The position numbers and the translations under genes are program-made. The notes beneath the pieces are model-generated. The model saw nothing but the letters and a program-made list of their open reading frames with translations, was not told the origin of the DNA and did not search any database. A stretch of 64,000 bases of DNA, taken from contig NC_092345.1 of NCBI RefSeq assembly GCF_963676685.1, positions 49,166,001 to 49,230,000 of the forward strand, written 5' to 3'. This document shows, piece by piece, positions 8,652 through 63,733 of this stretch (positions within the stretch are counted from its first letter, which is position 1; every line of letters starts with the position of its first letter). Source of the DNA: Mytilus edulis. Taxonomy: Eukaryota.

Positions 8652-9231
8652 GGAGTAGGTCCGGTAAGGGCCGATTTAGGCCTCAAATTTCAGGTTCATT
8701 TAACAAAAGATTTTGGGCACTTTTTAAACAGTTAAGTGTCTATTTCAATTGATTCAGTTAGTTTATGTGAAAGATTTTAACTGATTGAGTCATTAAAAAC
8801 GCTCCGATTCAAGCTTAAATATCATGGAAAATCTATCAAATATGCAAAAAAAGTCACTTTCATATAGTTTTTGTCAAAAATGAAAGTGGCCGCATCCGTG
8901 TTCATCCTTAATTTTTATATAATGTTATGTATTATCATCAAATACAACTTATATTTCAATATTAAGAATGAACAAGAATGCGGCCACTTTCATTTAAGAC
9001 GAAAACCGTCTAAAATTTGACGTAAATGCTCAAATTGTGACGATTACAGTAATTTAGCATGGCTTAAGGATGCTAGTTCCCGATATATGTGCATCGCATG
9101 GTTGAAAACAGCCCATATTTATGTAGCAAAAGCATTCTACTCTCCAATAGATAACTAAAAGTTTACATTTTAATAATTTTGTAAAACTGCTTTATTTTGG
9201 GGCCAAAAAGGGGTCTTACTGGACCTACTCC
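8652..9231. mobile_element. Spy-like MITE (inserted in AAA|TTT, no TSD)
   Basis: TIRs GGAGTAGGTCCGGTAAG / CTTACTGGACCTACTCC flanked by AAA and TTT; internal IR AATGAAAGTGGCCGCAT / ATGCGGCCACTTTCATT. Confidence 0.75.
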
Positions 9232-9869: not shown

Positions 9870-11522
9870 TCACAAAAGAACATCATTAACAAAGAATGAA
9901 ATTTCCAAAATCACAAATCTGTCCTTCTTTCTTTTGGTATTAACATCAAAGAAAAAGAAGAAAATCTACCGTCATTAAACTGGATACCAAAAATGCACAC
10001 CTTATAAGGAACGATACATAGCTGGATAGTTTAATATCTTTCTTTAATGCTGACTACTATTCTTTCTACAGTAAAATCTGTACCTGTAGAAAACTTATCG
10101 AAAATGGTATTTTACATCCTAAATTTTACGATAATATTGTACTTAAAGCGCGGAAATTACTATGTGATCCGTGTAAACTCATCGAACCTTTAAACAAACT
10201 TATTAGTGAGGGTTATCGTACCAATATTGTAATTAGATCTCTGAATATAGTTTACATTGGCACTAATATCGATTCAGTCATTAGCAAATTAAAACATAAC
10301 TAAATTGTATTTTCTTTGCAAGCGGGATCATATAGAGACACACACACGTTAAGTTTTATCTCTAAAGAATTCGCTCCTCACTATCCTGCTACCTGTCGAT
10401 ACATTTGTTTTTGGCATTGCACAAGTGATGTTTTCTCTGACTGTTCATGACGTTAAAATACTAAATCCCTGGGATGTGTTTTCGTTGATTTTAGTCTCTG
10501 ATGCATGATTTTTATTATTAATTGTTTTGGCTTTTAACTAGCTTTCAGTAACTGCGAGTACTCTCAAATCTTACTTTCTTGTTAATTTGACCTGTTGATA
10601 CTATTTGTAATGCTTTTTTGTTATTTTTTTTTTATTAATATGGATCTTGTCTATATTACAGCTTTGATTATTTGGAATATCTACTAATTTTCACTTCTTC
10701 GTACTATGAACATCAAAATTATTCATTTTTTTTTTAATCTGTACAGAAAGTTCTATCTAGCTCTAATTGTATAGTTTTATTGTTGATATTCACCCATATG
10801 TACCAAATTTTAGATTATGTTTATTTATATTACAGAACTTTCTTGGTATTCCCAATAGGAAGATTTGGTATACACAACGACAAAATTATTTTTATTTACC
10901 TGTGTAAAATATGAAACCGGTTTATTTCAAAAGTGAGGATTTTGTACAAGTTGTTAAATTTTCACAGTTGTATCTTACCATAGCTTTGTTTAAACTTGTT
11001 TATTTACTTTTGACCTTAAATATTTATCCTTAATAACTTTATTAACTATGTATTTGCATTCAGGCATCGCAGATCAAATGTATTCGTTCACATTGTGTTA
11101 ATTAACGTTTTTTGATTGAGTTAAGCCTTCCAATTGATATTATTTTATCGTGTGTTTATCTATGTTGTGATGTTATACTATTGTCTAAAAAAAGGGAGAA
11201 GGTTTGGTACCATTAAAACATCTTATCCTGCTGCAAATGTTTGCACCTGTGCTAAGTCAGGAATCTGATGAACAGTAGTTGTCGTTTGTTTATGTAATTT
11301 ATACGTGTTTCTCGTTTCTCGTTTTTTTATATAGATTAGACCGTTGGTTTTCCCGTTTGAATGGTTTTATACTAGTAATTTTGGGGCCCTTTATAGCTTG
11401 TTGTTTGGTGTGAGCCAAGGCTCTGTGTTGAAGGCCGTACCTTGACCTATAATGGTTTAATTTTATAAATTGTTATTTGGATGGAGAGTTGTCTCATTGG
11501 CAGTCACACCACATCTTCCTAT
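9870..11522 (+). mobile_element. Internally deleted Penelope-like retroelement (Naiad-type) with intact 3' UTR/terminus
   Basis: Frameshifted RT N-part (TKNEI.NHKSVLLSFGINIKEKEENLPSLNWIPKMH.PYKERYIAG) joins at ~10081 directly to the C-terminal TCRKLIENGILHPKFY...PLNKLISEGY...HN* (stop 10301-10303). No C-terminal GIY-YIG. Ends in GTTGTCTCATTGGCA..ACCACATCTTC. Confidence 0.8.
10439..10496 (+). promoter_or_regulatory. Type II SECIS-like element in the 3' UTR of a Penelope-like element
   Basis: Helix I GACTG/TAGTC. Core ATGAC (10447) / TGAT (10486). 10-position helix II GTTAAAATAC/GTGTTTTCGT. AAA 12 nt after ATGA. Mini-stem TCC/GGA. Confidence 0.7.
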
Positions 11523-11584: not shown

Positions 11585-12640
11585 TAAAAAAATTGTAAAG
11601 ATCTACTGATACATCTAAGATCACAATCTCTGCAATTTTGCAGCAACTTTAAAACCTTTTTTACGCTTTTCACTGCTATCCCCATGCTCAATTGAAAGAT
11701 CAACTTTCCAATCTCATCAAACAGATTTTTTTCTATAAAAATGGGAATCGTAGATTTGAATTTCTTGTTTTTGGTCATGATAATTTTTATTTTGTGAACT
11801 TTCAGAAAATATGCTGGAGATGATAATATCAAAATGTTGAATTTTTGTATCGATAATGTTTGGTTTGTATCGACAATGTTTGGAGGATCGATATTTCACC
11901 AGACAGTCAGTATTCCAATGGTTACTAATTGTGCAACACTACTGTCCGACTTGTTTTTGTAATCGTATGAAGCAGCCTTCATTCAGAACCATATAAAGGA
12001 CGAAAAGAAAAAGCACCTTGCAAAATTCTTTAATTTTAATTTTAGATATATTAATGATGTTCCACCACTAAATACACATATTTCAGTCAGTACTTACATC
12101 TTATATATATCCCAGTGAACTTGAAATTAAGGATACTACTTATACTAGAAGGACTGCTTCATACCTTAATCATTTCCTCAAAATTGACACAGATGGACGA
12201 CTTCACACTAAATGACAAAGGGGACAATTTCAAATTCCTAATTATTCCTAATTAACATACCTCCAGCTCCGTCTTATGGTGTTAACATATCTCAGCTGAT
12301 GCGTTATGCTTGGGCTTGTCACACTATAAGGACTTCAGTTACAGGAGCTCAGTGCTCCTTATGCAGACACTGCTTCACAAAGTAATGAGGTGGAAAAATA
12401 AAAAAAATACACTCCATAACCTCCATGGACACCATTACGAAATGGTTGATCTGTACGATGTGTCTGTGTCTAAACTAGCTTACGATATTTTTACCAAGTC
12501 TTATATTCTGGTTTACCATCTAAGTCGTCTGACCTGCGAAGTACCGAAAGTGAAATAATCCCGAATATGACTGTCTTCCCCAGTGTGAATTCACATTGCT
12601 AGTAGACGTGTCTCAGTATTTATACATCCAACAATTATGT
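11585..12640 (+). mobile_element. Decayed Penelope-like element reverse transcriptase fragment
   Basis: IPHAQLK, FGGSIFHQTVSIPMVTNCATLLSDLFL*SYE, FRYINDV (from YIDD), IYPSELEIKDTT, APSYGVNISQLMRYAWAC; multiple stops and frameshifts. A matching 3' terminus resumes at ~14100-14185 after the HINE insertion. Confidence 0.88.
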
Positions 12641-12722
12641 ACAAATGTATATAGTTATGATGTTTCGTTTGTAATTATGGTTTGGTATTGAGTTATGTCA
12701 TTTCGTTTGTGGTTTGATTTTT

Positions 12723-13974
12723 TTTAGCTCACCTGACCTGAAAGGTCAAGTGAGCTTTTCTCATCACTTGGCGTCCGTCGTCCGTCGTCTGTAAACTTTT
12801 ACAAAAATCTTCTCCTCTGAAACTACTTGGCCAAATTCTACCAAACTTGGCCACAATCATCCTTGGGGTATCTAGTTTAAAAAATGTGTGGCGAGACCCG
12901 TCAAACCTACCAAGATGGCCGCCATGGCTAAAAATAGAACATAGGGGTAAAATGCAGTTTTTGGCTTATAACTCAAAAACCAAAGCATTTAGAGCAAATC
13001 TGACAGGGGTAAAATTGTTGATCAGGTCAAGATCTATCTGCCCTGAAATTTTCAGACGAATCGGACAACCTGTTGTTGGGTTGCTGCCTGTGAAATGGTT
13101 ATTTTAAGGAAATTTTGCAGGTTTTGGTTATTATCTTGAATACTATTATAGATAGAGATAAACTGTAAACAGCAATAATGTTCAGCAAAGTAAGACCTAC
13201 AAATAAGTCAACATGACCAAAATGGTCAGTCGACCCCTTAAGGAGTTATTGCCCTTTATAGTAAATTTTTAACAACTTTTCGTCATTTTTTGTTACTTTT
13301 CTAAAAATCTTCTTCTCTGAAACTACTTTGCCAAATTTAACCAAACTTGGCCACAATTATCATTGTGGTTTACAGTTTATAAAATGTGTCCGATGACCCA
13401 GCCTACCAAACAAAATGGCCGACATGGCTAAAATTAGAACATAGTGGTAAAATGCAGTTTTTGCTTTATATCTTTAAAACTAAGACATTTAGGGCAAATC
13501 TTTCAAGATTTTAATGTCCATCAGAATAAGATATATCCCCTCACAAATTTTCAATTGAATCGGACAACCTGTTGTCGGGTTGCTGCCCTAAAATTGGTGA
13601 TTTTAAGGAAATTTTGCAGTTTTTGGTTATTATCTTGAATACTATTATAGATAGAGATAAACTGTAAACAGCAATAATGTTCAGCAAAGTAAGATCTACA
13701 AATAAGTCAGCATGATCAAAATTGTTAGAGGACCCCTTAAGGAGTTATTGCCCTTTATAGTCAATATTGAACAACTTTTCGTCATTTTTGTAACATGTAT
13801 AAAAATCATTTCTAAAACTACTTGGCCAAATTTAACCAAACTTGGCCACAATCATAATACTAGGGTATCTTTTTTTTTTAAAAGTGTCTAATGACCCCGC
13901 CTACCAACGAAGATGGCCAACATCTGTAAACACATTAACAGGTGAGCGACACAGGCTCTTGAGAGCCTCTAGTT
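12723..13974 (+). mobile_element. Helentron-associated non-autonomous element (HINE / DINE-1-like)
   Basis: T-rich ends, subterminal IR GCTCACCTG...CAGGTGAGC, 5' hairpin, (GTCC/GTC)n microsatellite, ~500-bp internal tandem units, 3' hairpin AGGCTCTTGAGAGCCT. Confidence 0.85.
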
Positions 13975-16265
13975 TTATTTGTACATGTATGTAAAAGTTA
14001 AGATAGATAATCAGCTAGTTAATTTATAGGATTTTTAGTTTAGAGCTGCTATATGCACAGGATTTATTTAATTTTACAGTTTTTAAGTTTATGTGTTTCT
14101 TCGGTTTCGCTTTGTGACACGGTTTTGTTTCAGTTCAATCGATTTTTTACTATTGAACAGCGGTATGCTAATGTTGCATTTATTTACCTCAGTGGTTGAA
14201 CTCTTTTTTTCAGGTACCACATACATATGTATGAAACAACAATAAAGAATTGATAGTTGTAGCAAATTTACCTGACGATATCTGGATATGGGTATTTAGT
14301 CGGATCTTAACACGTACTTGTGATTTGTTTAAAACCGGTTTTAACGAAGAAATGTCGAAATGTTCAGAACTTAATTAAATCTGTTTTTTGGTAAGATGGT
14401 GCAAGCATACGATTTTTATTGCGTCTTACACTTTGAGAAGCGAATAATCTATAGCTACTTTATATAAATATTGTGTAAAAACGTTAATTATGAGCTATGA
14501 AAGTCAAGTGGCTCAAGCATTTTACTGAGGAAGTTTTAAAAAAATGCAAAGAAATATTTTACCAGTGGGTTAGATTTCATTAGTCTTCACTATTTATAGA
14601 TTAAAAACTTTTGGTTATATCTATAATTTAGAATCATCATTGAAGGTGGAGCGCGGTTGCACAGTTAATTAATTATATTGATGTGTCATTTGTATGCAAG
14701 AGTGACATTCCGTTGTATTATGTGCCAATTCGAAAAAGTTATACGAGTATTGTCTCCCTTTAACAGGTTCATTATTTTATAATTAAGTTTAGGTTTCTGA
14801 TCTAAATTTGAATAGTTACAAAATGTATCAATTCAATATAATTCAGTTTTTGTTATAGGTGTATCAAAAATATTGATGTACGAATATAATTTCATAAATT
14901 TGAAACGTTTAAAATGATTACATACCAATATAAAGAACCGTTCATCATTTTTGAAAAAGACTATGATTAAATTACATATTATTTATCTTCCCTTCATGAT
15001 ATATTGATTGGGAAATGAACCAGAGTTATCTAAAGGTAATCACAGAGAGGGACTAGTAAGCAATTTTTAAATGTAGCTTATTTAATGTTAAAACTACTTT
15101 CCACTATAAACAAATGTTACTTTATACAAATATAAGAACCTTGTTAAGAGGTCGGTTGAAACTATTTTTTAGTACACAGTATAGATTCAAAATTAAATTT
15201 GTAAAACTATGTAGTAAATAAGGATACAGCCATAAAATATGGAATCTTTTGTTTATTTTACTAATAACGTAGATGGAAAAATTTCGAAATAAATGCAAGA
15301 AGAGCAAAAAAGTGTTGATAATTAGAATTCTACAATCGAAAAATACGTTACCACTTTTCAAATTAATTATTCTAATGCTTTACACAGATTTTGAATATTA
15401 AAACGCATTCAATTCTTTATTTTTGTGTCATATTTTGTATTGGGTACCTGTAACAAAGAAAAAACAACTCTAGAAATTGAAACCAATCTAGATCTGAGTT
15501 ATGCCGCTTTGTGCAACGAATATCACTTTAATCATGTAACATTTCGTTACCGCAACCAGCCTTAACATATATGCGCACAGCCTTTTAAAGACTGTTAGAA
15601 CTATATATGTTACAAAAACGTATACTGAGCGAAGCTTTTCTTTGTTACCTTCATAGGAAAACTATCAAAATTGAAACCAAATACACGCACGGCTGTAAAA
15701 GTTTGATAAAATGTTCTATATGAATGCCTATATAAAGTCCGATTGTATTATTCACGCTATGCTGGAATAATCCATTAATTACATTGTACACTCAGTTTTT
15801 CTCACTGGCAATTAGACAAAAACTTTAATAGACATAACTAAATCGTGTAAGATGTTTTTACACCAAAAGTTAGTATACTCAAACTTATAAGACATTTTTT
15901 TTCAAAATACTTGTCTGAACAGATATGAAGATACGAACGACACACTTAAAATCAACAAGCGGAGAATAAAAAACGTCGCAGGGGACCAATTCTATACAAT
16001 AATTTACAGAACATATGTTCTTTTCACTGTCACGCTCCATTTTAATAATAGTTAATATAATCTTATTGTGTATAAACGATAATTTTTTTTCCCATGTTGT
16101 GTTCTACAATGAAAGAAAACAATATCGACAAAAATGAGCTTTCGATGAAAGATTTATTGCAAAGGTATTGTATTCTAGGGAATGATGGTCTTTGCCAGAT
16201 TTGGAATGTCGTGTCAAAATTTTAGTTTTCAATGCTTTTCAACTTGGTTATTATTTGAGTTTGTA

Positions 16266-17945
16266 AATAAAGGCAACAGTAGTATACGAAACTCATAAAT
16301 CGATTGAGAAAAAAAAATCTGGGTTACAAACTAAAACTGAGGGAAACACTCAAATATACGAGGAGAACAACGGTACAACAGACACACAACATTAAAATGT
16401 AACACACACAGAAACGAACTATAATATAACAATGGCCATTTTCCTGATTGATACAGGACATTTTAAGAAAAAAATGGTGGTTTAACCTGGTTTTGTGGCA
16501 TGCCAAACCTCCCGCTTTTATGGCAATGTTAAATATAACATTAAAATGACAACATTACAGGACAGGACTACAATACAAATAAATGAAAGAACATACAGGA
16601 CAGAGAAACACACGAATAATAGCTAACCAGGTTTAAAATATAATGCGCCAGACGTGCGTTTCGTCCACACAAGACCAGTTACGCCCAGATGAAAAAAGTT
16701 CGAAAACCAAAACAAGTACAAAGTTGAATAGCACTGAGGAGCAAAAGTTCCAAAAAGTTTTAACCAATACCTGCTAGGGTTTTCTGCATGTGATAAGAAC
16801 ATCCTTATTATTTAGAATAATTCATACTTTTGCAACAGTAAATTTTATAAAATGACAACTAGTATATAATAGATATACATGATAAAACCGAAGTGGTGTC
16901 TAACTACAGAATAAAAACGGATACATTACATAAAACAACCTAATCCAGCACATATTAATACACAGCCGAGTTAGCCAAAGCCTCAACGCACAAAGTGACG
17001 TCACATTTGAAATTCTAAAAAAACACAAATTGACGTCACATTTGAATTTCTAAAAATATTTCCCAAAAATAAGATAGAATTAGAATTGATTCAAGATTAG
17101 ATGTGTAATACTGATATTACATCTAATGAAAATTACAATACTTATTAATATCAAATTGTGGTAGTAATTAGATAATTAATTGTATTATCTAGCTATGTCG
17201 GTGTTTCTTCTGAATCAAACTGTAAACCAAATAAATCGTGTAAATTTCGTTGAACCAAACTAAAATCTAATAAATGAAGGGGGCGATTAATTATCTTTAC
17301 CATTACACACGAATATAACAGAAAAGACGTTAAAACATTTGACAAAGCCGATGAGAATAACAAATATAACATCAAAACTGAATACATGAATTTGGGATAG
17401 AAAAGTACCGTGACACGTCTTATAGCAATGCGAATTCACACTCAGCAAAACAGTCACAATAAAAGATCAGACGACGTAATGAAAAAACCCACAATCTAAC
17501 ACGTGGTAGAAATGTTCTTAGTTAGTTTGGACTAAGACACATCGTATGGATCAACCAATTCGTGATGGTGGCCGTAAAATTAAGGAGAGTCATTTTTAAT
17601 CTGTCCTCCTCATAACTTTGTTGGGGCAGTTTCTGCGTAAGGAGCAAACTCCTGTATATGAAGTCCGTATAGTGTGAACAAGCACGAGAATAACGTATCA
17701 ATTGAAGTAAACACCATACGAAGGAGCAGAGAGTATGTTACTGCTGAGAAATGGGAAATTGATAATTGGGAAGTTGAAATCGTCCTGTTTATCATAGATT
17801 TTCGTGTGAAGTCGTCCGTCTGTGTCAATATTGAGGAAAAGATCAAGGTATGAAGCAGTCCTTCTAGTATCAGTAGTATCCTTAATTTCAAGTTCAGTGG
17901 GATATATAAGATGTAAGTATTGGATGAAATATATAATACGTATGT
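16266..17945 (-). mobile_element. 5'-truncated Penelope-like element: RT thumb region, 3' UTR with hammerhead remnant, and 3' terminus
   Basis: YLHLIYPTELEIKDTTDTRRTASYLDLFLNIDTDGRLHTKIYDKQDDFNFPIINFPFLSSNILSAPSYGVY; same subfamily as 11585-12640; ends GTATACTACTGTTGCCTTT. Confidence 0.88.
16645..16686 (-). ncRNA. Degenerate type I hammerhead ribozyme (core deletion)
   Basis: GGGCGTAA CTG[ATGA missing]GTC TTGTGTG GAC GAAAC GCAC GTC TGGCGC. Confidence 0.7.
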
Positions 17946-18090
17946 TTTCAGCACCATTGTTCATTAAATATCAAAATCGTTACGAATATTACAGTGTTCA
18001 AGACGTATTAGACACAACTTTTTCGGAATATGGAGTTTTTAATGCTCTTCATCTTCGTATTTGATTTAACCTTCCAACTGGTTTATTCGA

Positions 18091-18131
18091 GCGTCACTGA
18101 TATGTCTCATGTAGATGAAAAGCATTTCTGG
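18091..18131 (+). ncRNA. Degenerate hammerhead ribozyme copy
   Basis: GCGTCA CTGATAT GTCTCATGTAGAT GAAA AGCATTTC TGG, with the same flanks as the other copies. Confidence 0.55.
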
Positions 18132-18799
18132 TTTTCCAAATTATAAGCCTGGTATTTGATGAGTTTTTATTTCTAAGACATACCGGTAATTTGCCTGAGT
18201 GAAAATGGGAATTTTTTTTTTGATTTTCAGTGCTTTTTAGATTCGTGACATATTAGGTGTTTTACATGTTTATAATTGTATGCTACTGTTATTGACGTCG
18301 GAAACACGCGTCTAGAAAGTTCAATCATAAGTCCGACCTTCCATCATAAACCGTTTTCAGTGCTCAGATTAGTTGTGCTTGAAACACCAAATTCAGTATT
18401 TTGAATGGTTTAGTAAGATACTCGTAGTCAAAATCTTTGTAATCATACGTCGATATACAAAAAAGGATATATATGATTAGGTTTTTTCTTTCATAATCAT
18501 TACTTTAGGTATCAATTGTATATAAGAGACTACATAAGATACGGTTCGTTTGAATTTGACTCCCTGCATTAGAAGTGCTTATTGTATTTCTCTCAATTTT
18601 GTCGTTTTATTTTGCTTGTACCGTTCTAGCTTCTTACTTTGTGTCTATACTAATATCTTGTACATTTCTGTAACATACACAGCTAGTATAAAAATAATTT
18701 GAATCAAATGCTCTGTAATTTAATCTCAAAGCATAACTTTGTACTTATTTCTACAACAATTCTACAACGTTTGTTTTCATGATTGCTGAATTCAGATGA

Positions 18800-19351: not shown

Positions 19352-19651
19352 TCAATTATCGATAATCCATTTCGGATATTGCTTTATTAGTTCGTCATAG
19401 TTATGATCAGCTGGCAGACATGTGGACTCCCGTTTCACGCCATAACGCTGTACTCTTACAGTTGATCCCCTTTTGGACCTTTCTATCGGCTCTACACGTA
19501 CAGCATTTTTAGAGGAAATAGCTGCATCTTCAGCAAAATAATTATAGGGCAAGAATAAACAACTATTATCCATACCAGGTGATGTTGTGACAGGAAGATC
19601 TTCTGTGTGTGGAATGTGATATTGACCCATAGTAATCCAGGCTACCAAATC
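19352..19651 (-). CDS. Copper amine oxidase, exon 3 of 3
   Basis: Acceptor TCTCTTAAG|GAT, phase 0. DLVAWITMGQYHIPHTEDLP...LPYNYF carries the third Cu-ligand His motif of AOC enzymes. AATAAA follows the stop (19338-19343). Confidence 0.95.
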   Translation of the reverse strand, partial: DLVAWITMGQYHIPHTEDLPVTTSPGMDNSCLFLPYNYFAEDAAISSKNAVRVEPIERSKRGSTVRVQRYGVKRESTCLPADHNYDELIKQYPKWIIDN

Positions 19652-19930
19652 CTTAAGAGAAAAAAACATTTAAGAGCTGAATTTTAGTTAAGATTAGTTA
19701 AGATAGGAAACAATATTATGTTCAGTCAATGTATTGAAAGGTAAATGGTATGTTAAAACTACAAATTATATCGAAGTGATAAGCAAATGAAAATATACAT
19801 GTGTTCTTTTTTTTCAATTATATTCGGACTCTGTTTTCTTTGTAATATTTGTTCTTGGTTTACTTTTTTTCGTCGATACATCCATTGTAAAATAAAATAT
19901 ATATAAACACATTGCTTATATTAGACTTAC

Positions 19931-22008
19931 TTCATCTAAAATAGAATCGTTGTCGTCAATGTATTTCTGGAAATCTACTACTGGTTCTTTTATATCCAAA
20001 GAACCATAAACAGAAGAACTTGTTCGTTCAGAGTCGTTATATTTAGTAACTGCCATTTGGTAACGTGCCCAACTGGCTATAGGTTCATTTCCGTATCCTC
20101 TTGGTAATAACTGATAAGTCATGCCTTTATTTAAAATTCTATAACTTTTAACATTACCATAGTTATCCTTCATTTGTTCGTTGTACATAACTAGGTACTT
20201 TGGGGCATCGAAGTTAAAACGGTAAGCTGCGTCTTTTTCCGTTTTTTTGACAGATGTGTTAAATTTGAGTTGGATAATTTGTTCAACCGGAACTTCAGAG
20301 AACTGGTTTTCTATCTCTTCTGTGTTAATATCTAATGTTGCAAATCTATTTGATGTACCCTTTATATCTAGATCGGCTTTTATATGAAAAAGATGATGAT
20401 GAATAGGCGCGCCAAAATTATCATGCAGCTGGAATGAATATTTTTCGTCACCTTTTGTATAAAATAACGCCCGTACATAACCAGTGCTCGTCACCTTCAC
20501 TTCTAGCGCTCCATTAGGATAGAAAATAAAATCTATTATATAGTCATAATTGCCAATTGTAGGAATGGTCCTTAAGACAAGAACTATATTTTCCATTCCT
20601 TCGTAAAATCTACCATTACTAAACCAGTAAGAATGATGCCGCCTAAGTGGCATACCTGTATTCAATTCAAACAGACAAAACGAAGTCGTAAGTTCATAAG
20701 AACTTACACCTCCGACATGGAAACTAGAGCCAATAAGGGTTGCATCTTCAGGACAGTCGACACCAGGAAATAAAACTTTTGATTGCAAGCCTATAAGTGC
20801 AATACTATCCAGAAATTGTGCTAAAATGTCATTTGGTTTAAAACCAGAATAAAAAACAGCTATTTCCTGTATACTAAGTTCATAAGCAATCCGTTCATTT
20901 TTAAATCGGATATCATACAACTGTGGTCCATGTATTGTAGACATTCGAAAATCAAATTTCCAAAACATGTATTCGACATGATGTCCTTGGACATTGTATC
21001 GCTTACCATCAGGCGAAAACTGCTTTGGGTTTCTAAGCGATGGATCCATTGGAGGAATGCCTCGCTGATTTAAAGTAGAAAAATCGTCAGAGCTATACAA
21101 GGGCAGTGGAATTTTGGGAATAGTTTCTTTGTTTTGATTATAGAATGTTAACACCTCAGTTATGTTATTGAATAGTGTACTATTAAACCAAATCTTTTCA
21201 ATGGTAAATATTTTCATATCTATATCAACGAGTACAGAAAAATCTAATAACCGGAATCCTGAATACTCTGAAATATGATTTAATGACGTCCATACTTTCC
21301 TTTTGTTTTCGCCAGAGAGTGTAGGAGATACGGCTACACCATTTCCAAATTGAAGACAAGCATTATCACAATTTGTAAGTCGTGCGCCAAAAATATCCAT
21401 GAACATGACACCAAGAAAAGGATCGATGTTTTCTCTTAAATATATTATCATTTTGTAATATTCATTTCCGCTAAATAGTGGGCGGTATACAAATGGGATT
21501 TTCTCAGACCTAAATGGTACGGGTCGGTAGTGTGTTGGCGTTGGTAGTGGACCAACTATTACTTCCTGCATGTATGGTGGTTGTTCATTTCCTCTGAATA
21601 TAATAACATGAGCTTCTCTTGGTGGTTTCGGTCCATTCCTATCAAGGTAATTTAAGACATCTTTTTTATCGGGTAAATATAAATCACTTAAAAAAATAAA
21701 ATTTTTGTCTACGTTAATATCTTTTAGATCTACGAGATTCAGTTCTTGTTGATTGTACAAAAACGATCGCAGTCCTTCAATTTCAGCTCTTGTCAGATGA
21801 ACAAATATAGAACTGGTATTTGATAGTTCAAGGTTTATTTTCCCGTATTTTTCACTAGTGGTTTGACATTTTCCGCTTTCTACCTTGTCATTTTTGTTGT
21901 TCTTTATGATTACAACGATGAGTGCTATAGCTAACCCCATAGACAACAGTCCTAGTAAAATTGCTATTATCCGCCATCTCTGCCCTGATATGTTGGTATA
22001 ACTTGGTC
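19931..22008 (-). CDS. Copper amine oxidase (membrane primary amine oxidase-like, AOC family), exon 2 of 3; full protein about 796 aa
   Basis: N-terminal type II TM helix (WRIIAILLGLLSMGLAIALIVVII). Catalytic Asp region QFLDS, TPQ consensus TIGNYDY, Cu ligands PIHHHLFH, plus LRRHH and ARYQMAVTKY motifs. Ends at donor GAA|GTAAGT. Confidence 0.95.
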
Positions 22009-22324
22009 CTACAAAACATATAGAATCCGCACTACTACATTGACGATTTTTTAATTATAAGAATTTTCTGTTTTTTTTTGTGATTTTCAACCGCTTTGAA
22101 GTTGTTTTTTTTTTTATTGTTTTGATCGTTTTACAAATTGCTATTCCCTCTCGGGCGAGAGTTTTAGAAAGTATTATGTTATGTAGTTTCAATATTTTTT
22201 GTACAAGATATTTTTTTTTTTAAATTGTATATTTTTGTGTACATATTTTGATAATAAATATCATATATTTTTAATATACAGAAATAAGGATAAGAAAATA
22301 TGTCATTATAATGTTATTATTTAC

Positions 22325-22337
22325 CTTTCATTTCCAT
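22325..22337 (-). CDS. Copper amine oxidase (AOC2/AOC3-like), coding exon 1 of 3 (MEMK-G)
   Basis: Minus strand reads ATG GAA ATG AAA G|GTAA. The phase-1 donor matches the phase of the acceptor TTTTGTAG|GA CCA at 22008 and gives MEMKGPSYTNISGQRWRIIAILLGLLSMG... Confidence 0.65.
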
Positions 22338-24888
22338 AGTGATCAGTGGTTATCTTTCATAGAAGATAGACAATTTTTGTAGGTTTAGTTTACAATCTAA
22401 AACAAAGACAAACATAGTTATCAATGTTTATCTTTCTTCTAAACCTGCACAAAACAACATGGGAGTCACAGTGTATCAATATTTACGATTTTTCTGATTA
22501 CTTGTTGATTGTGTTGGTTGATTCTTTCCAACCTAAAAGCATAGAGCTACATTCCTTGTAGTAGTATCTAGTTACAGAACGATGTAAGTTCTGCTTACTT
22601 TCGGTGGAAGAAAGAACTAAGATGGACGAAAGAGGTAACTAAGAGTCATAAGTCGAAGGACAGACAACACAATGGCAAAAAAATCGAACAGATCATAAAT
22701 AAACACGAACTAGTCAGTAGTCATGTGCTTGTAGTTCAGAGGTTATCATTGGTTTATGTCTACCCTATTTGTTTTTTTTTGTAAACTGTTTGTTATGAAT
22801 TAGAACGTTAGTTTTCACATTTGAATGTGTCATATTATTTATGTCGGCCGACGGGGCTTTTTTTAACCGACTCCCAGTATACGGTATGTGTTTTTCTAAT
22901 TGTTCAAGGTAGTAAAGTTGTTTATGAATTGATTGCTTACATTCATTTCATTTGAACGTTGGTGGATAGCTGTATCATTGGCATTTATACCACGTCTACT
23001 TATTTGTATGGCAAATCGATCGTAGATATTCACATTTTAACAAAAACTACAACTAAAAAGTAAAAACACAAAAATACTGAACTCAGAGGAAAATTCAAAA
23101 AGGAAAGTCCCAAATCAAATGGCAAATTCAAAAGTTCAAACACATCAAACAAATGGATAACAACTGTCATATTCCTGACTTGGTACAGGCATTTTCTTTG
23201 CTAAATGCTGCTTCTGGACACTTTGTAGTTGACTACCTAAATGAAACAAGAAAACCTATAAATTTCATTTTGATTTTTACCCACTGGAAATGGTCCACTA
23301 TATTTGCACATTTCAGTTCTTCTTACTGTAAAGAATCTCTTTAAGAGGTTATGGCCAAACTCTTGAGGGCAAGGCTAGATAGACTGCTTGCTGATGGATC
23401 CCGGAGATATCTTCTTAGAAAAGATATGTTTTGGAGGATTTTTTTTATCCTGAATTGCATTTAAAAATGTTACAAGTAGGGGGAGTTGTTCCAGCAGGAG
23501 ATATTTGTACTTCCCATGTCACAAGGGAAAATTGTTTGCGAAAGGAACTATTTGGAGGTAACATTTGTAGAGGACATGTAGAATACGTAAGATGCGTTTT
23601 GGCAGATATTGTTTCATAAGATTTTACGATGTACTTCTAACGCTGAACGATAGCAGTACAACACCGTTGTAGAAGCTACATGTAGCTATATACGCGTTAA
23701 AAGTCATATGAGATATGCAAAAATAACTTACGGCACTCACCGTGGCTGTTGATTCCTCGGGAACGCTCTCCTACCTTTTACATCAACACAGTTGTAGGAA
23801 TGGGTGGGCCGATGAGTTAGCTTTATACAAGCAGGATGCAAGAATAGCGTACAGCAGTCACTGTTGTTGATGTTTCCTCGGGAACGCTCTACTACCTTTT
23901 TAATGCTTACCAATTTGTTTCTATTTTACACATTGCAAAATTCCAATACGGACGAAGAACGTAAAGGGACCATGTATTTCATTCCTGAGAGAACGCCGAG
24001 GGTCTATGATTTATCCAGTAAAGAGCATTCTTTTCTTTTATCTTAATGCATATTGCAAATAAATTTAATAAACAACTATATTTAAAATACACTTACGACC
24101 GATACCTGGCTTATATGTATCACGGTTACACAGATTTGTATGGGAATTGCTGAAGCATGGATTTTTTTAAATATGTATACCACGAATAGTTTTTTAAATG
24201 AAATACATGAAGTATGATACTCTAAATTTAACGACAATTTCAAAACAAATGCTAATTTCAACAGTTTATGGTGTACCTCTAACGCTGAATGAGAACTGTT
24301 GTTCGTTTGGGGGGGGGGGGGGTCGGGAAGAAGGAAATTATTTAAAAGATTATATTTCGTTGATTTACAGGTTCAATGCAGACAAAAAGCGACATTTACA
24401 ATCGAATGACCACAATGTGATACAATTACCCCCCTTTGCAGTAAAATATGGTTCCCTTGGTATTTCACACATGATTATAATTGTTTATTGTTTTATCTTC
24501 TGTGAATGCTTATTGCACAAGTGATATTTAATTATCTCATTATTTTAAACTTTGTTAATTTGATTTATAATCATCTTAAAATTGTGGACCGATCAACTGT
24601 CCAATTTTAAATACTTTTTATGTATAAATAATAAGTTAAAAAAATACAACGGGTGCATATTTCGTCTACATAAAACTTAGCATTGGTGCTCCAATCTAAC
24701 TAATTTGAAACACAAGTAAATTACAAAGTTGAAAAGCTTCTGAATTGACATTTCAAATTTTCTACGGTAATTAATGCCTTGGATTGAAAACCTTCGTTAT
24801 TGATTTTTCAACGAATACTCATTTTTGTAAGTATAGTTTGGTCCTCAATGCTCTTCAACTTCGTACTTGTTTTTGCCTTTTTATTCGA

Positions 24889-24932
24889 GCGTCGCTGATG
24901 AATCTTTTGAAAACGAAACGCGCGTCCGATAT
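24889..24932 (+). ncRNA. Type I minimal hammerhead ribozyme (stem II damaged)
   Basis: GCGTCG CTGATGA ATCTTTTGAAAAC GAAA C GCGC GTC CGAT; stem I GTCG/CGAT. Confidence 0.75.
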
Positions 24933-25239
24933 AAAATTTCAATTGTAGTATCTATGATGAGTTTATTTACAACCACTGGGTCGATGCCACTGCTGGTTGA
25001 GTTTTTATTCACCGGGGGTATCACTAGCACTTCTGTGTTAACATGAATTATAGTTGATATGGTCATGGTTATAAATTATCTGTTTACAAAACTTTGAATT
25101 TCCGAAATAATAAGGATTTTCTACCTCAGGAATAAATTAGCTTAGTTGTATTTGGCAAAGCGTTTAGGAATTTGTTATCCTCAATGCTCTTCAACTTCGT
25201 ACTTGTTTTAGCCTTTTTAACTTTTTTTTTATTATTCAA

Positions 25240-25283
25240 GCGTCACTGATCAGTCTTTTGTTGACGAAATGCACTTCTGGCGC
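25240..25283 (+). ncRNA. Type I hammerhead ribozyme, degenerate core
   Basis: GCGTCA CTGATCA GTC TTTTGTT GAC GAAA TGCACTTC TGGCGC; stem I and stem II intact, core G8->C. Confidence 0.7.
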
Positions 25284-25575
25284 AAATATAAAGTTTCAAT
25301 CCTGGTATCTATGATGAGTTTAGTTACTTATGGCTTTCAACGCAAAACATACAGAAATAATGTTCATCTTTTATGCGCAATAGGAGTATACTAGTATTTT
25401 ACAATGAAAGAACCCGTGACATTGCGAAGATTACATGCTCGGTAAATGAGTTGTGTACAACTGGAAGATGTCTTGGAAAAGTTTGGATGAGGATATAAGT
25501 AAAGGCAACAGTAGTATACCGCTGTTCAAACTCACTTTATTAATTGGTGTATGGAAAGGTCTCTTGTAGCTTTAA

Positions 25576-25784
25576 GGTGGTAGACCTTGGTTCAGGGAGA
25601 TAACTCTTTAAATCAGTTATGTGTTTGTGAAAGTCACGTTTCATCAATGTATTTTAAGCATTTACCTGAAACAGATTGCAAATAATCTATGTAACCTAGA
25701 AACTTAAAATATATTTATGAAAATGGTTGACACAAACGTACTGATGATTTTAAGAGTTATTTGCCTTAACCTAGGTCTTCCTCT
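25576..25784. mobile_element. Kolobok-like MITE, TTAA TSD
   Basis: TTAA|GGTGGTAGACCTTGGTTCAGGG...CCTTAACCTAGGTCTTCCTCT|TTAA; inverted homologue of 63526-63733. Confidence 0.8.
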
Positions 25785-26140
25785 TTAAATGCATGCATTT
25801 TATTTGTCACAGATTTTTTTTGTACAATATCCAACACATAATTGACAATAGAAAAGGATAAGTGAAATGTCATGAAAACCCATACCACAAATTTGGCTAT
25901 AAAAGGCCAAGACTTAAGAAAAGGGATACCATTCAAATCAGAAACTAACGATCTAATTTTAACAAAACAATTTATGAAAATCGAGAACGATCAATACAAT
26001 TTACATATAAGGGGACTATTCTGATATCTAAGTATCTTAGACCGCAAAAACATGTGCTAGTGATTTAAGACTTATATATTTTGGATCCACAATGCTCTTC
26101 AACTTGGTACTTGTTTGGCTTTATAACTATTTTGATCTGA

Positions 26141-26184
26141 GCGTCACTGATGAATCTTATAAAGACGAAACGCGCGTCTGACGT
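26141..26184 (+). ncRNA. Near-intact type I minimal hammerhead ribozyme
   Basis: Stem I GCGTCA/TGACGT, core CTGATGA, stem II TCTT/AAGA, GAAA, palindromic stem III C-GCGC-G, cleavage triplet GTC ending at 26178. Confidence 0.85.
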
Positions 26185-26227
26185 ATTGAATTATAAGCCT
26201 GGTACCTTTGATAACTAATTATATATT

Positions 26228-26702
26228 TTTATACTTCACGTTAAAATACCATATTTTGATTGGCTAATACGAGGGTGTTAATTTACTCACATGGCTGAGC
26301 GGGTGACAATTTTTGAATGTCACCCTCTCGTCAAGACCAATCATAAATCGACAATTTAAAGGACAATGAATTGAATTTACATCAAGTAATTAATTACAAT
26401 GCTTAAGTTCTACGTTTTGACTCAAATTTTATTTTTTGACTGTCAAAATAAAAAAAATAAAACATCTTGCCTAAATTTTGTTGTTTTTTATAATACTCCT
26501 AACGTAGGTTATGAACATGACCTCATATAAATTACTTTCAAAATAAAATTAATTAGCAAAAGACAATAGTGATAGGACAATCAGTATAATAAATTAAATA
26601 AAACATAGCTGGGAGGGTGATAGAGCAGATTCGCCGCGGTTGACACTGTTTTCTCGGGGTAACAATCTGCTCTATCACCCTCTCAGCTATGTGTTATTTA
26701 TA
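26228..26702. mobile_element. Hairpin-bearing non-autonomous element (Crypton-like)
   Basis: TGATTGGCTAA end motif plus terminal hairpin CATAGCTGGGAGGGTGATAGAGCAGATT / AATCTGCTCTATCACCCTCTCAGCTATG. An inverted copy of the left end lies at 27402-27460. Confidence 0.55.
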
Positions 26703-27725
26703 TAGTGTCGATTTGAGTCCGTGCTCCTCATTAAAAGTGGCAGAAGATACAAAAAGGATATTCAAATCCACGATGGGATAGAGTGTTTTGAACTGTAGAG
26801 AAAAGTTTACATTTGGAAACATTAAGTTTGTCATAGGATCTAGTTAGAAGTCGCCAATCATTGTTATCCTTTAAGAAAGGATTAAAAACATGAAGCAGAC
26901 GTTCTAGTTTCGGTAGTACTTCGCTATAAACTTGGTTGACTTTTAAAAACTGCCTAGAATTCATTTAGAAGGACCAAAGTCTAAATATCTATAATAACCA
27001 CGATACGTATCCACCTGTTTGTCCCTAATCCTATCTCTGATGTGGTTGTTCAAATATTAATACCAACTCTTCTAAGTGAACTTGGTAGTGGTTGCAACCT
27101 TATGGTAGTCAGTATAATTTTTTTATAATTATTTCTTGACTCGTGACGATTTCAAACTAGACATAATGTATGAACCAATGTATATTGTTAATGGCGGTAA
27201 TAACTTTGTTGATATAGTCTACATGAATTAAATGTAAACTTTATCTTATACCAGAAAATTGTAAGAAGGTTACAGATAGTGTAAGTATGAATACAAATCA
27301 CAATATATAAAGTCAAATAAGATATGATTTTTTATACATAACAATTGGTCTACACGAGAGGATGACATACAAAACATGTTCTCCCGCTAAGCAATAGGAC
27401 AGAGTAAATAATCTCACTCGTATTAGCCAACCAAAATCTGGCATTTCAACGTGAAGTATATTAATTATTGTCATCTATTCATGGAAGATAATAATTACTT
27501 GAAATGAACTGAATTATTCAACGCATCAAACCATAAATATGCACAGTTATAAAATCATTGTTTGCTATCATGATGCAAAGTGTTTTTACGCATGTTGTTA
27601 TTCTGATGATATTTTTCCACATCTAAAACACACGCAATGTAGTTATAACGCCATTTTTGTGAACTTTATGATGGTTTGATGAGTATTTGCCTTCTTGCCC
27701 GGTAAATATAAAATAAAAGTCAAAT

Positions 27726-35336: not shown

Positions 35337-36854
35337 TTAGAAATATGCTGGAAGTATTACGAATGTGTATAACTTACTTGCAGGGATGTATTGACAGCCA
35401 TCCTTGTATCCTTTGTTTCTTGATTGTTTTACTTTTTCTCTTAGTTTTAATAATCTTTCTTTAGACCTCTTAATTTCATTTTCTAACTTCTCTAAATTAC
35501 TTAAAGAATGATCTATCTCACATTCTATTTTGTCAAATTGTCTTTGAATTCGACTGTCTTCTTCGTTGTCATTACATGGGGTTGAAATTTCATATTCATG
35601 ATCGTGAAATTCCTTTATTGGTTTACACAAATTGTTATATATATTGAGAGCATTTTGAGATCCTAGTATTTCTTTTGAATACTCTCCCTTTGTTGCATAA
35701 CATAGTGCTTTCTCTGTGTATTTTATAGCGTTTGAGAAATCATAATCTAAACCGAAATGTCTGGCTTTCGCTGTATAGTATGACCACTTCCAACGAGTTT
35801 CCATTCTCTTCCAACTTTCTTTAGACTCTTTTATTGATCTTAAAAAACCTTTGGCTTTACGTTTGTCTTCTGTTGTAACGGAAACATCTAGATATACACC
35901 GAACATACCTATACCCAAGAGAAGATGTGACAGTTTTAACAGCACCATTCTCTTGAAATCCAAATACACAGTTTCATCAAATTCAATTTCAACAGCAAAA
36001 TGTTCAATTGCTTGGTTAGCAATGTTGTTGAGTTGTTCCTTAAGACCTGGTTCCAAAGTTTCGGCGTATTTCTGACACAGCATATTATACTCAATGTATA
36101 ATACCGTACCCGTTTCCCTACAACCATGTATTAAGTCAAATTTGCTTTTTGCATCATTCACATAGTCTAAAGCGGTATCTAGTTCATCTTTGTTTGTCAT
36201 TAAAACTGCCGAGCCATATCGAACAAGTCTCATCATTTCTGGTAGGTTTTCCTCTGACAAATAAGGTTTCAGATTTTCCATCTTATCGAAAACGTCGGTA
36301 TACATAAGATTTTTATCATATATCACTCTCTTGTACTCACACCATGCATCAAGGGCGAAAAAGTAAAAGTCTGCAGCTTTAAATCTTTTATTACTCAAAC
36401 CTGAATTTTCAACAATTTTCCAGTTTTGTTCTGCTTTGAAAAACTCTTCTTCGAAAGTCAAGTGATCTCCACTGTGACTAAGACGCTTCAGATAATGTCT
36501 ATACACAACTAACTCTTTTCGAAACTTGCTAAAATATTCTGCTTTTCGTTGGACGGAAACTGAGCTCTGTGATGACTGACGAAGTACTTCTGCTAAAAAC
36601 CCGTACCCAGTATTCCTTAACGACTCGTATAAAATTTCCATTGTAATATTATCCATGTCAGCCACTTGGAACATGAACACTCGAGCCCTGTCCCCTCTGA
36701 ATTCGATGCTTCGCAACTTCATACAAGTATTTGCGTTAAAAACACCAATTTCATAAAGAAAGTCCATGACGTAATTTGGATCTAGATTCTCTATAAATAT
36801 TCGGTGCACTTTTCGGAGCAATAATTTGCTTTGTTCGTCCATTTTTAATATCAT
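35337..36854 (-). CDS. CARD (death-fold) domain protein with central TPR-like helical region and C-terminal coiled coil
   Basis: 505-aa ORF. The first ~95 aa follow the CARD pattern (LRKVHRIFIENLDPNYVMDFLYEIGVF...RGDRARVF...LYESLRNTGYGFLAEVL). Helical repeats follow (ALDYVNDAK, AIEHF, AIKYTEKALCYA), then a heptad segment (LSNLEKLENEIKRSKERLLKLREKVK). A possible donor GTAAGT at 35377 could replace the last 13 aa. Confidence 0.85.
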   Translation of the reverse strand: MILKMDEQSKLLLRKVHRIFIENLDPNYVMDFLYEIGVFNANTCMKLRSIEFRGDRARVFMFQVADMDNITMEILYESLRNTGYGFLAEVLRQSSQSSVSVQRKAEYFSKFRKELVVYRHYLKRLSHSGDHLTFEEEFFKAEQNWKIVENSGLSNKRFKAADFYFFALDAWCEYKRVIYDKNLMYTDVFDKMENLKPYLSEENLPEMMRLVRYGSAVLMTNKDELDTALDYVNDAKSKFDLIHGCRETGTVLYIEYNMLCQKYAETLEPGLKEQLNNIANQAIEHFAVEIEFDETVYLDFKRMVLLKLSHLLLGIGMFGVYLDVSVTTEDKRKAKGFLRSIKESKESWKRMETRWKWSYYTAKARHFGLDYDFSNAIKYTEKALCYATKGEYSKEILGSQNALNIYNNLCKPIKEFHDHEYEISTPCNDNEEDSRIQRQFDKIECEIDHSLSNLEKLENEIKRSKERLLKLREKVKQSRNKGYKDGCQYIPASKLYTFVILPAYF

Positions 36855-37908
36855 TTTATTATACGGAAGTGTTAGAAGGTTTACATGGGTTTTACATGTG
36901 TTCCTAAAAAAAGTCCCTGACGCAATTTAGGTCTTCTAAAATTATACTATTCTTATTATATGCATTTTTTCCCTAGTACAATGTAATATCTTATTATATT
37001 GTCCATTTAATTATATAATCATAAATCTGTTAAATGCTTTTATTATGATTTATGAACCAAAACATTCGCTGCATATTTGATATGAATACATGTACATCTG
37101 AAACCAAATACTATAATACTTAATTGTATTACTCTACATTTAATATGATCGGTAAAATAAAAAAATAAACAAGGCTTTCAACCCAATAGTATATAGTGTG
37201 TGTCTGCTATATATATTATATCCTTTTTGAAGGGAGTAAGTTAATGTAACTTGATGCTCTAAAAACTATATAAAAGTGTGATTTCTAGTCTATGTCTCTT
37301 GCAACTGTAAAATTTGTAAACAATTGCGTCTTACTTCTGAAATAGTTTATAAAGAGCTCCATATACGTATTTTTTTTTCAAATAATATATCAAAAAAACT
37401 TTTTTATATTCCTTTGAATATTTAAATTGGTTAAAAAAAGGAAACCCTGTCCCCCTCAATTTCCACCTCTGAGAGTTATAAAACATGCCTTATTTTTCAG
37501 TAAAGAAGAAAATGCGGTTCAAAAATGAAGTCCATTAAATTCCATACAATATGTTGTAAAACGTTTGTGATGTTTGGGTCATTTCTCCCTTTAGTGCCTC
37601 GAAAACGTTACATTTACAATGAATCTACTCGAAAAAAATACAAACATGGACTGTCATATGGAATTCCAAGCAAAAGAAATGCATGAAAATAGGACTAAAA
37701 GGGTTCAAAAAGTATATCGTTACGATGGACCAAGATAAAGTCCCTTTTAGCTTAGCTATATCATATTTGGATAACACAGACCGAATGGGAAACAAAACCT
37801 AAAAAATGATGTATGTACAAAAAAAAACTTGCCGTTCTAAATCAATACCAACTATCGCTTATTAAAAAGGACACTATAAGAATCGGTTTAATTGAACTAT
37901 TATCATAT

Positions 37909-38722: not shown

Positions 38723-39031
38723 GGCAGCAACCATTTGATTTTCGGGGGGGGGGGGGGGGGGGGGCTATGGTTTTTTTTTTGGAAAAAAAAGTTTGTTTCC
38801 AGTTTTTGGAGAAAAAAATAATTTGTTTTTGATTCTGAGAAAAAAAAATTGTTTGTTTCACCCTCAGCTGCCACTATATGTAATGCTAAAATTGAAAGAA
38901 AAAAATTGTTTTCGACTTGTCGCGAAAAAAATAAATTGTTTTTCGGCCCAGGCGAAAAAAAATATTTGTCCAGAAAAAAAACCCATAGCCCCCCCCCCCC
39001 CCCCCCCCCAGAAAATCAAATGGTTGCTGCC
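38723..39031. mobile_element. MITE with long TIRs containing poly-G/poly-C tracts (Kolobok-like)
   Basis: GGCAGCAACCATTTGATTTTC-(G)n-CTATGG / CCATAG-(C)n-AGAAAATCAAATGGTTGCTGCC; flanks TTTA and TTAG. Confidence 0.85.
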
Positions 39032-56723: not shown

Positions 56724-57284
56724 GTAAGATAAATGTCCAACTTTATCTCTTCAAGGAAGTTAAAAGTAGACAGTTAATACTTTCGTCATGCAAAGAACAT
56801 AAAACAGTTTCAAAATAATAGGTTTGATTGGTGATTGCATTATTTCGTAAAGTATATTTACTTGTATGGTATTGGGTGAAATTTGAATACAAAAATGTTA
56901 AAAAGGAATATGATAAGAAACAACTCCACCTACTATCACATGGGTCATTTTGTTGCTTGCCAACTAAACAATAACACTGAATTCATGATTAGTAAATAAA
57001 GAATAAATATACATATATATGAAAGTAAGAAGATATGGTATGATGTGACAAATGATGTAGAAGTCACAAACAATATGTTACTGTACAGCCATCAGAATAA
57101 ATTGTTAATTTCAATAAGACAGTGATCCAACAAGAAAAGTAACATAATTTACATTTGAATCTCACCATATGTTCTTCTACAGTAGGCAAGCAATTCACCG
57201 TTTCAGAATCTATTGCATTCTAGGTAATATTTTCAAAAGTATACACCAAAACATTGTGATTGGTTTAAAGAATAACATGAATAG

Positions 57285-60889: not shown

Positions 60890-60970
60890 CTAAATTTTAT
60901 GCAACGGAAAAAACCCCATCTTATATTGACTTTAGGAAGAGTATGATAAATAGTATACAATATGCATTAA

Positions 60971-63525: not shown

Positions 63526-63733
63526 GGAGGTAGACCTAGGTTAAGGGAAATAACTCTTAAAATCATCAGTACGTTTGTGTCAACCATTTTCAAAAACATA
63601 TTCTAAGCTTCTAGGTTACATAGATTATTTTTAATCTGTTTCAGGTAAATGCTTAAAAAACATTGATGAACTTGACTTTTACAAATGCTTAACTGATTTA
63701 AAGAGTTATCTCCCTGAACCAAGGTCTACCCCC
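63526..63733. mobile_element. Kolobok-like MITE, TTAA TSD
   Basis: TTAA|GGAGGTAGACCTAGGTT...AACCAAGGTCTACCCCC|TTAA. Confidence 0.85.

Follow-up and report, generated by a model that had tools for sequence, protein, structure and literature searches.

The locus at positions 24840-25333 (plus strand) of the analysed window, a stretch of 64,000 nucleotides from Mytilus edulis, is very probably a dead retrotransposed copy of a Mytilus non-LTR retrozyme family, which was inserted as 1.4 units into an older relative and has decayed since. On this reading it descends from the non-LTR retrozymes of mussels and is a relic that no longer works. Because the family and its circles are already published, with about 5000 hammerheads, a single dead copy is ordinary, and as such the locus is a new, dead member of that family. 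Its use lies in the insertion that it records, and its mechanistic interest is modest: the literature has yet to settle which reverse transcriptase moves animal retrozymes and whether the circles are a true intermediate (PMC7229834; PMC7761336; bioRxiv 10.64898/2026.07.22.740005). Our literature search returned no paper on M. edulis hammerheads; nor did it return a description of the insertion anatomy of mussel retrozymes, the 2020 supplement and most subscription papers lying outside the search.

The window has a GC content of ~32%. Its frame 19931-22009 (minus strand) is 100% identical over 693 residues to the M. edulis copper amine oxidase P0001. The start codon of this gene is found at 22337 (minus strand), and the two-hammerhead locus lies 2.5 kb upstream of it on the opposite strand. 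Pfam gave no relevant match for the reverse-transcriptase-like fragments of the window; hence, the partner reverse transcriptase is not named from the window.

The repeat unit and its copies in the window

Two hammerhead cores, CUGAUGA at 24895 (copy A) and CUGAUCA at 25246 (copy B), lie 351 nt apart, and the same distance separates their cut sites (C17) at 24926 and 25277. The exact spacing reported in the preliminary description therefore holds for cores and cut sites alike. Its repeated flanks are equally real: the hammerheads occupy the same register of two terminal repeats of ~130-150 nt, namely 24842-24970 (plus strand; the end of the previous unit and the tail) and 25178-25327 (plus strand; ending ~50 nt past the cut site), which BLAST matches with an E-value of 6e-26. 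Their alignment has 129 columns with 17 mismatches and gaps of 15 and 6 nt (K2P 0.146). Between the two cuts, the unit that would form the circle extends over 24927-25277 (plus strand), and its GC content of 33% lies below the 50% limit of retrozymes, a weak test given the composition of the window. The tail is joined to the body by a link region (24971-25027, plus strand), which is 12 nt shorter than in most copies and is present in other loci. It starts with the AC-rich arm of a predicted hairpin whose stability is not above that of shuffled sequences.

The whole inserted copy comprises ~1.4 units, is 5'-truncated and has a GC content of 35%. Its ends are uncertain by ~8 nt; they were placed by the flanks, which align with the neighbouring positions 16115 and 16117 in another copy of the window (G). 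A candidate target-site duplication, 9 bp long with one mismatch, may mark the insertion target: AGTATAGTT at 24830-24838 (plus strand, uncertain) and AGTTTAGTT at 25317-25325 (plus strand). If it is real, the inserted copy would be 24839-25316 plus the duplication, leaving 6 extra bases relative to copy G. The right-hand copy is ambiguous, for it overlaps the family tail, which matches it at 8 of 9 positions, and random segments of the window, used as a control, give the candidate a chance of 0.10.

None of the 25 window matches to a tRNA-Met primer-site motif falls inside the element, its longest purine run as a possible polypurine tract is 5, and it contains no coding frame of at least 90 residues, all six frames being interrupted. 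We rejected a protein product of the minus-strand frame 24884-25075 (64 residues). This frame matches only short predicted ORFs, and all ten that were looked up are singletons; since the matches leave the frame at different points, we read them as spurious translations of the repeat. A word-indexed protein search with the same frame retained none of 39 candidates among longer proteins, and the search with the plus frame retained its only candidate, P0121.

BLAST and a profile built from the window copies detected seven further family pieces in the 64 kb, i.e. copies C to G and two halves of a copy H; the family makes up 2.8% of the window in total, and the older relatives 2%. Copy C (26085-26216, plus strand) is solo and truncated. 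Copy D (16611-16898, minus strand) and copy E (18000-18172, plus strand) are solo and 5'-truncated, the former with a 4-nt deletion in the core, the latter with a decayed core. Copy D spans the equivalent of 25028-25315, and the link has no second copy in the window. Copy F (5095-5137, minus strand) consists of the tail only and begins at the first base past the cut site. Copy G (15986-16269, plus strand) is an uninterrupted member of the older family to which H belongs; its 3' end is cut off by another repeat, and it serves as our empty-site reference. Two tail variants are distinguishable, one in A, B and E, the other in C and F.

The head-to-tail junction was examined with phmmer, using its translation against 1.84 billion proteins. 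Of the 16 matches obtained, 13 run from body through link to tail; as they span the junction, the 351-nt unit is a real repeat of the family. We fetched 14 matches, all of them short unnamed ORFs with 58-78% identity (13 with body, link and tail, one with link, tail and ribozyme), and left aside P0125 and P0128, which are long and match at 34-36% identity in many stretches. The hosts of the matching ORFs are, judging by sequence, presumed to be mussels. Twelve of the 14 translations carry four additional residues in the link, and the copy at our locus has consequently lost ~12 nt there. Size and architecture thus agree with the assignment to a mussel non-LTR retrozyme family made in the preliminary description, as judged by the published account of the mussel clones (GenBank MN642551-MN642576). 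In a search of papers, six sequence words taken from the element had no occurrence.

State of the hammerhead ribozymes

The hammerheads have a helix I of 6 bp, a helix II of 4 bp and a helix III of 2 bp with a palindromic GCGC tetraloop. Canonical metazoan and minimal type I layouts are defined in PMC4209133, according to which the minimal Penelope-type hammerhead lacks a helix III and a loop 3 outside its core and has a helix II of 7-8 bp and a helix I of 4-5 bp (further literature: PMC10886601, PMC2837043). By these definitions the helix lengths and the palindromic tetraloop correspond to the canonical metazoan form, and the ribozymes are not minimal, as they had been called.

A search with hammerhead models, proposed earlier as a check, was successful for two of the ribozymes: the Rfam model Hammerhead_1 (type I) finds A (24889-24932, plus strand) with 29.0 bits, at an E-value of 3.8e-5 on 491 nt and 0.0049 on the whole window, and C (26141-26184) with 29.7 bits. 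B (25240-25283, plus strand), by contrast, is weak, with 16.1 bits and an E-value of 0.21 on 141 nt; it was missed in the 4-kb and 64-kb scans. At the gathering score, which is 34 bits for Hammerhead_1, Rfam has no match in the window. The hammerhead of C is the best preserved, its only lesion being an A.C mismatch at the base of stem II.

Lesions had been claimed for both ribozymes at the locus (stem II; CUGAUCA core), and they are more extensive than that. Hammerhead A keeps its core and helix III; pairs 1 (A.C) and 3 of stem II are mismatched, and stem I, weakened in its outer part, has three Watson-Crick pairs, two wobbles and one mismatch. Hammerhead B carries G8C (at 25251) and retains C3; the second pair of its helix III no longer forms, and its loop has ceased to be palindromic. 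The G8C mutation abolishes hammerhead cleavage (PMC11167929), and B is predicted to be dead. In a circle released by cleavage at A and B, the core would be that of B, and the first pair of stem I would be an A.C mismatch. An intact hammerhead in both repeats, by which active retrozymes are recognized, is thus not present. The suspected fossil status agrees with all this, while the term 'genomic template' of a circular RNA does not describe the present locus, whose downstream ribozyme is predicted dead and whose circle junction is mismatched. From the lesions of B, we infer that the locus can no longer release the 351-nt monomer. Weak stems II are sometimes tolerated by natural hammerheads (PMC3088659); hence, A or C may, by this analogy, retain some activity.

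Minimum free energy (MFE) folds of six hammerhead copies and one antisense stretch were in no case better than those of shuffled sequences (z from -0.91 to +0.79), and we regard MFE as of little use here. Folded as a circle, the 351-nt unit reaches -60.5 kcal/mol with 59% of its bases paired (z +0.15 against 100 shuffles), i.e. it has no excess structure. Rfam did not support a further hammerhead that we considered for the minus strand of the link; there was no minus-strand ribozyme match in 23000-27000, 24590-25080 or 25200-25340.

The preliminary description further pointed to a compensatory change in stem I of the first copy. The change is present as described, but it is a single event and not significant. 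Pair 2.1-1.1 is G-C in A, A-U in four of five other aligned copies and unpaired in the remaining one. The translations of other copies imply U at position 1.1 in six of seven in-frame cases, and C in none, and A at position 2.1 in three of three; the G-C pair is therefore private to A. We rejected selection on this pair: pairs with double changes are not above shuffles in the covariation analysis (227/500), and in a neutral simulation at least one double change among five copies occurs in 12-45% of runs. Differences between A and B are concentrated inside the ribozyme (10/44 versus 7/85 outside; p 0.03), which might be taken for selection for inactivation. We rejected this explanation because the excess is accounted for by CpG loss: without five CpG-type changes it is no longer significant (p 0.20).

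The interrupted older relative

A decayed inverted fragment had been noted immediately upstream, at ~24710-24830. The fragment is indeed real and decayed, but its extent is larger, covering 24620-24839 (minus strand) and resuming at 25334-25464 (minus strand). We regard these pieces as the 3' half and the 5' half of H, an older relative parted by the insertion. Against six copies, the inverted fragment yields scores of 54-88, each above the best of 300 shuffles; it includes a heavily decayed hammerhead at ~24645-24692, for which Rfam has no hammerhead match. The 5' half scores 87 against the sequence upstream of G, a value reached by none of 500 shuffles (mean 24). On G, the right flank of the insertion (25334-25464) corresponds to 15986-16115 and the left flank (from 24839) to 16117-16269; when joined, the flanks score 163 against G (best of 300 shuffles: 51), with 74% identity over 262 columns. 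Because the flanks map contiguously onto G, the 1.4-unit copy sits inside an older element of the opposite strand, and these alignments show it to have split H in two. No duplication was found around the whole block of inverted fragment and unit.

The greater age of H is reflected in its hammerhead, which differs by 35-40% from those of A, B and C, as compared with 19% between A and C and 29% between B and C. The inverted fragment is closer to G (28% divergence) than to B (33%), though no closer than to D (27%). The 5' half of the G/H type compared with the link of the unit does not score above shuffles (404 and 365 of 500). One possibility for the G/H family is a third family of mussel retrozymes; another is that it represents the terminal repeat of the autonomous partner. 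We did not accept homing into relatives as shown, since one nested event against a background of 2% of the window is insufficient.

Mode of insertion and relation to known systems

In all five copies with a readable 3' end (B to F), the sequence ends 35-50 nt beyond the cut, short of the link, whereas the 5' ends vary; H is too decayed for its end to be placed relative to the cut. The shared 3' end lies just before the AC-rich hairpin arm of the link. Beyond it, C and F have ~30 nt of further AT-rich sequence in common. The pattern of ends suggests a constant internal position, downstream of the cut, from which reverse transcription begins. Such a start, as opposed to an end made by the ribozyme, implies that the template was a circle or an uncut multimer.

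According to the cycle proposed for these elements, tandem transcripts are cut once per unit, monomers are closed by a host ligase, and the circles are reverse-transcribed into cDNA longer than one unit (PMC7229834; PMC7761336); Penelope-like elements are the published candidate for the borrowed reverse transcriptase (PMC7229834; PMC7761336). In M. galloprovincialis, cleavage and circles have been demonstrated, and reinsertion has not (PMC7229834). Applied to our family, tandem repeats would be transcribed in active members and cut by the type I hammerhead once per unit, a host ligase would close the monomer to a circle of 350-390 nt, and the reverse transcriptase of an autonomous element, possibly Penelope-like, would return the RNA to the genome. 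At our locus, copying would have started ~45-50 nt downstream of a cut site, passed through one whole unit, continued for ~85 nt past the next cut and then stopped, resulting in 1.4 units with a hammerhead near each end. Judging by the flanks, this product broke the older relative on the opposite strand in two when it was inserted there; afterwards the two repeats deteriorated, in part through the loss of CpG, and ribozyme B lost G8 and helix III.

A stricter version of this scenario is offered tentatively, and as a whole we consider it rather doubtful: the locus would be a fossil of retrozyme mobilisation by a Penelope-type reverse transcriptase with a constant internal start, 35-50 nt beyond the cut and at the base of the AC-rich hairpin arm; the enzyme would travel round the 351-nt circle more than once and would have a tendency to choose older relatives with hammerheads as its targets (homing). 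Its elements, i.e. the fixed 3' end, the 5' truncation, the length above one unit and the nested empty site, lend themselves to a genome-wide count, which could be set against the internal start measured for a Penelope-like element. If they hold across thousands of mussel copies, the signature of the insertion site would name the partner enzyme.

A rival reading concerns the template. An uncut linear tandem transcript on which the reverse transcriptase started internally would yield the same family and the same dead state, with one step differing, and we regard it as a serious possibility, if somewhat short of an even chance. A Penelope-like element shows internal initiation, and normal insertion of hammerhead mutants, in vitro (PMC11167929). 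Two units of an array could also supply repeats that differ by 13% and two indels, with a G-C pair private to A; these differences equally fit decay after insertion, 5 of the 17 being of CpG type, and in mussel tissues circles dominate the retrozyme RNA (PMC7229834). It is quite improbable that the dimer was produced directly from DNA, whether a solo copy was duplicated in place or a satellite-like array shrank. The terminal sequence of Penelope has been proposed to be amplified locally into tandem repeats (bioRxiv 10.64898/2026.07.22.740005), yet a truncated solo copy, duplicated in place, would leave the link missing from its family position, and the block sits cleanly inside the older element, its flanks contiguous within 1-6 nt and its end coinciding with the ends of solo copies. 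We judge it very unlikely that the locus is what remains of an autonomous Penelope-like element, with its pseudo-LTRs as the two repeats and its coding part lost by deletion. Pseudo-LTRs of Penelope do carry type I hammerheads and form partial tandems (PMC8557442; PMC4209133), and Xenopus retrozymes are homologous to them (bioRxiv 10.64898/2026.07.22.740005); a deep descent of the family from a pseudo-LTR is conceivable. But no frame of at least 90 residues lies between the repeats here, the spacer is the standard family unit in 13 of the 16 junction matches, and the hammerhead is canonical.

Two further readings, in our view, deserve hardly any credence. That the locus is still an active template of the 351-nt circle, perhaps by means of dimeric hammerheads, would accord with the preserved core and helix III of A, the occasional tolerance of weak stems II (PMC3088659) and the known rescue by dimers (PMC7229834; PMC4209133). 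Against it, B carries G8C but no compensating C3G, its loop is no longer the palindrome through which dimers form, the circle junction opposes A to C at the first position of stem I, and eight of nine predicted Xenopus dimers were inactive in vitro (bioRxiv 10.64898/2026.07.22.740005). Just as implausible is a functional double-stranded RNA hairpin of inverted fragment and unit, a source of small RNAs, or their origin as the two arms of a single Penelope-type inverted insertion. The inverted homology is real, the MFE fold of 24600-25330 pairs some of it, and insertions of Penelope often have an adjacent inverted truncated copy (PMC8557442). However, that fold has a z of only -0.57, the duplex of fragment and unit reaches -75.5 kcal/mol against -71.5 +/- 6.4 for 100 shuffles, and its longest perfect helix is 10 bp, or 12 with G-U pairs (shuffles 12.2). 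The double-stranded RNA suggested in the preliminary description is therefore rejected, and the fragment is half of an interrupted older element. We also rejected a single inverted insertion because H extends past the far side of the inserted copy and is a member of another, older family.

Our preferred reading, a dead retrozyme copy, leaves only a loose analogy of the earlier term 'viroid-like', given that no minus-strand ribozyme was found. Viroids of the Avsunviroidae type have a similar size range, and their multimers are processed by hammerheads. Both features are shared by the active retrozyme family. Unlike viroids, the locus is genome-encoded, has a type I ribozyme on one strand only and no rod-like fold, and gives no sign of RNA-RNA replication or infectivity.

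With the pseudo-LTR ends of Penelope-like elements (PMC4209133; PMC8557442; PMC11167929) the family shares a type I hammerhead near the 3' end in a partial tandem, variable 5' truncation, a fixed 3' end past the cut, an AT-rich target and insertion into related sequence. In contrast to these elements, it has no reverse transcriptase/GIY-YIG frame, 351 nt between the repeats and a canonical hammerhead, and the inverted neighbour is an older element instead of a part of the same insertion. The anole element described in PMC11167929 starts internally in an AC-rich stem-loop downstream of the hammerhead and can nick its own terminal repeat. The shared 3' end of our copies before the AC-rich arm parallels this start, although the hairpin here is not above shuffles and the end lies 35-50 nt past the cut as compared with ~85-92 nt in the anole element (by subtraction of the positions in PMC11167929). 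Non-LTR retrozymes of vertebrates are described as non-autonomous Penelope derivatives (bioRxiv 10.64898/2026.07.22.740005). Similar to our family, they are scattered between genes as monomers, dimers or truncated copies, and the majority of their predicted dimers are inactive; the preprint sampled no mollusc, and its definition of 'active', an intact hammerhead in every repeat, does not apply to our locus.

The closest relatives are the retrozymes of M. galloprovincialis. Cervera and de la Pena (2020; PMC7229834) reported ~5000 type I hammerheads of two similar families in this species, whose repeats measure 350-390 bp and cleave at ~0.1 per min, and abundant, 'highly self-paired' circles; as criteria for retrozymes we used a repeat of 150-450 bp, GC below 50% and, when present, a target-site duplication of more than 4 bp. 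The locus differs from that description in its host M. edulis, in its 1.4 units with both ribozymes damaged (one predicted dead) and in its nested position in an older relative. Furthermore, its circle is no more structured than shuffles, a test absent from the main text of the published account of self-pairing. In common are the mussel host, one type I hammerhead per head-to-tail unit, a unit length of 351 nt within the range of 350-390 bp, the low GC content and a lack of primer-binding site, polypurine tract and long ORF; the two tail variants of the window likewise accord with the two similar ribozyme families of M. galloprovincialis (PMC7229834).

Intact hammerhead cores and copy ends

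Among the copies in the window, intact cores are found only in A, the upstream hammerhead of the 351-nt retrozyme unit, and in C, a truncated copy downstream of it; the two differ in tail variant. In both, the basal pair of stem II is an A.C mismatch (24902 in A, 26154 in C), at a position that is occupied by G instead in B (the downstream hammerhead of the unit), in the truncated copies D and E, and in H, an older opposite-strand relative split by the retrozyme insertion. The shared mismatch is not a CpG change. On the plus strand, 1252 nt separate the cut site of A from that of C (24927-26178); speculatively, if both ribozymes were partly active, a long transcript could give rise to a 1252-nt piece with ligatable ends. 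The short copy F (5095-5137, -) starts precisely at the first base past the cut site, as would a cDNA that terminated at a ribozyme-made 5' end, a sequence pattern represented here by a single short case.

The older, hammerhead-bearing family is represented in the window by the uninterrupted member G (15986-16269, +) and of H (24620-24839 and 25334-25464, -). Its 3' part is held in common with the retrozyme, while the 5' half is unrelated, and in both copies the alignable sequence begins some 320 nt ahead of the cut site in H.

Open frames, genes and other repeats

An open antisense frame of 64 residues (24884-25075, -) spans the ribozyme and the link between tail and body of the retrozyme unit. 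A similar frame is retained in other copies of the family, probably because only open frames get predicted as proteins.

The window also contains the M. edulis copper amine oxidase gene with three coding exons (19355-22337, -) and a frame of 529 residues that carries a CARD domain at its N-terminus (35337-36926, -; Pfam E 1.1e-6). A further frame of 562 residues (42144-43832, -) had no Pfam match; it includes hydrophobic stretches, and its C-terminal part is strikingly rich in cysteine. Furthermore, a repeat of about 500 bp forms four arrays that are 77-85% alike (12721-13977, 54609-55938, 57282-57904 and 59603-60892). MITE-like elements with long terminal inverted repeats occur at 38730-39024, at 8861-9011, and at 25564-25804 with 63514-63757; one of them is bounded by G and C runs. 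The miRNA matches of the whole-window Rfam scan arise from these elements and are spurious.

Possible Penelope-like fragments and a SECIS-like element

Two frameshifted fragments (17356-17970, -, and 12078-12676, +; 73% identity to each other) are similar to the thumb region in reverse transcriptases of Penelope-like elements; a Pfam search of both was negative. The former lies in head-to-head orientation to retrozyme copy E. Another frame (10022-10303, +) is similar to the end of such a reverse transcriptase, a likeness for which Pfam gave no support. After a gap of 134 nt it is followed by a SECIS-like element (10437-10498, +; Rfam SECIS_1, 27.8 bits against a gathering threshold of 35) with E-values of 0.0014 in a 301-nt scan and 0.29 in the window scan, and with AUGA, AAA and UGAU at the expected places. 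SECIS-bearing Naiad elements have been reported from clams and spiders (PMC8557442); a Mytilus Naiad with a SECIS, if true, would be a lead.
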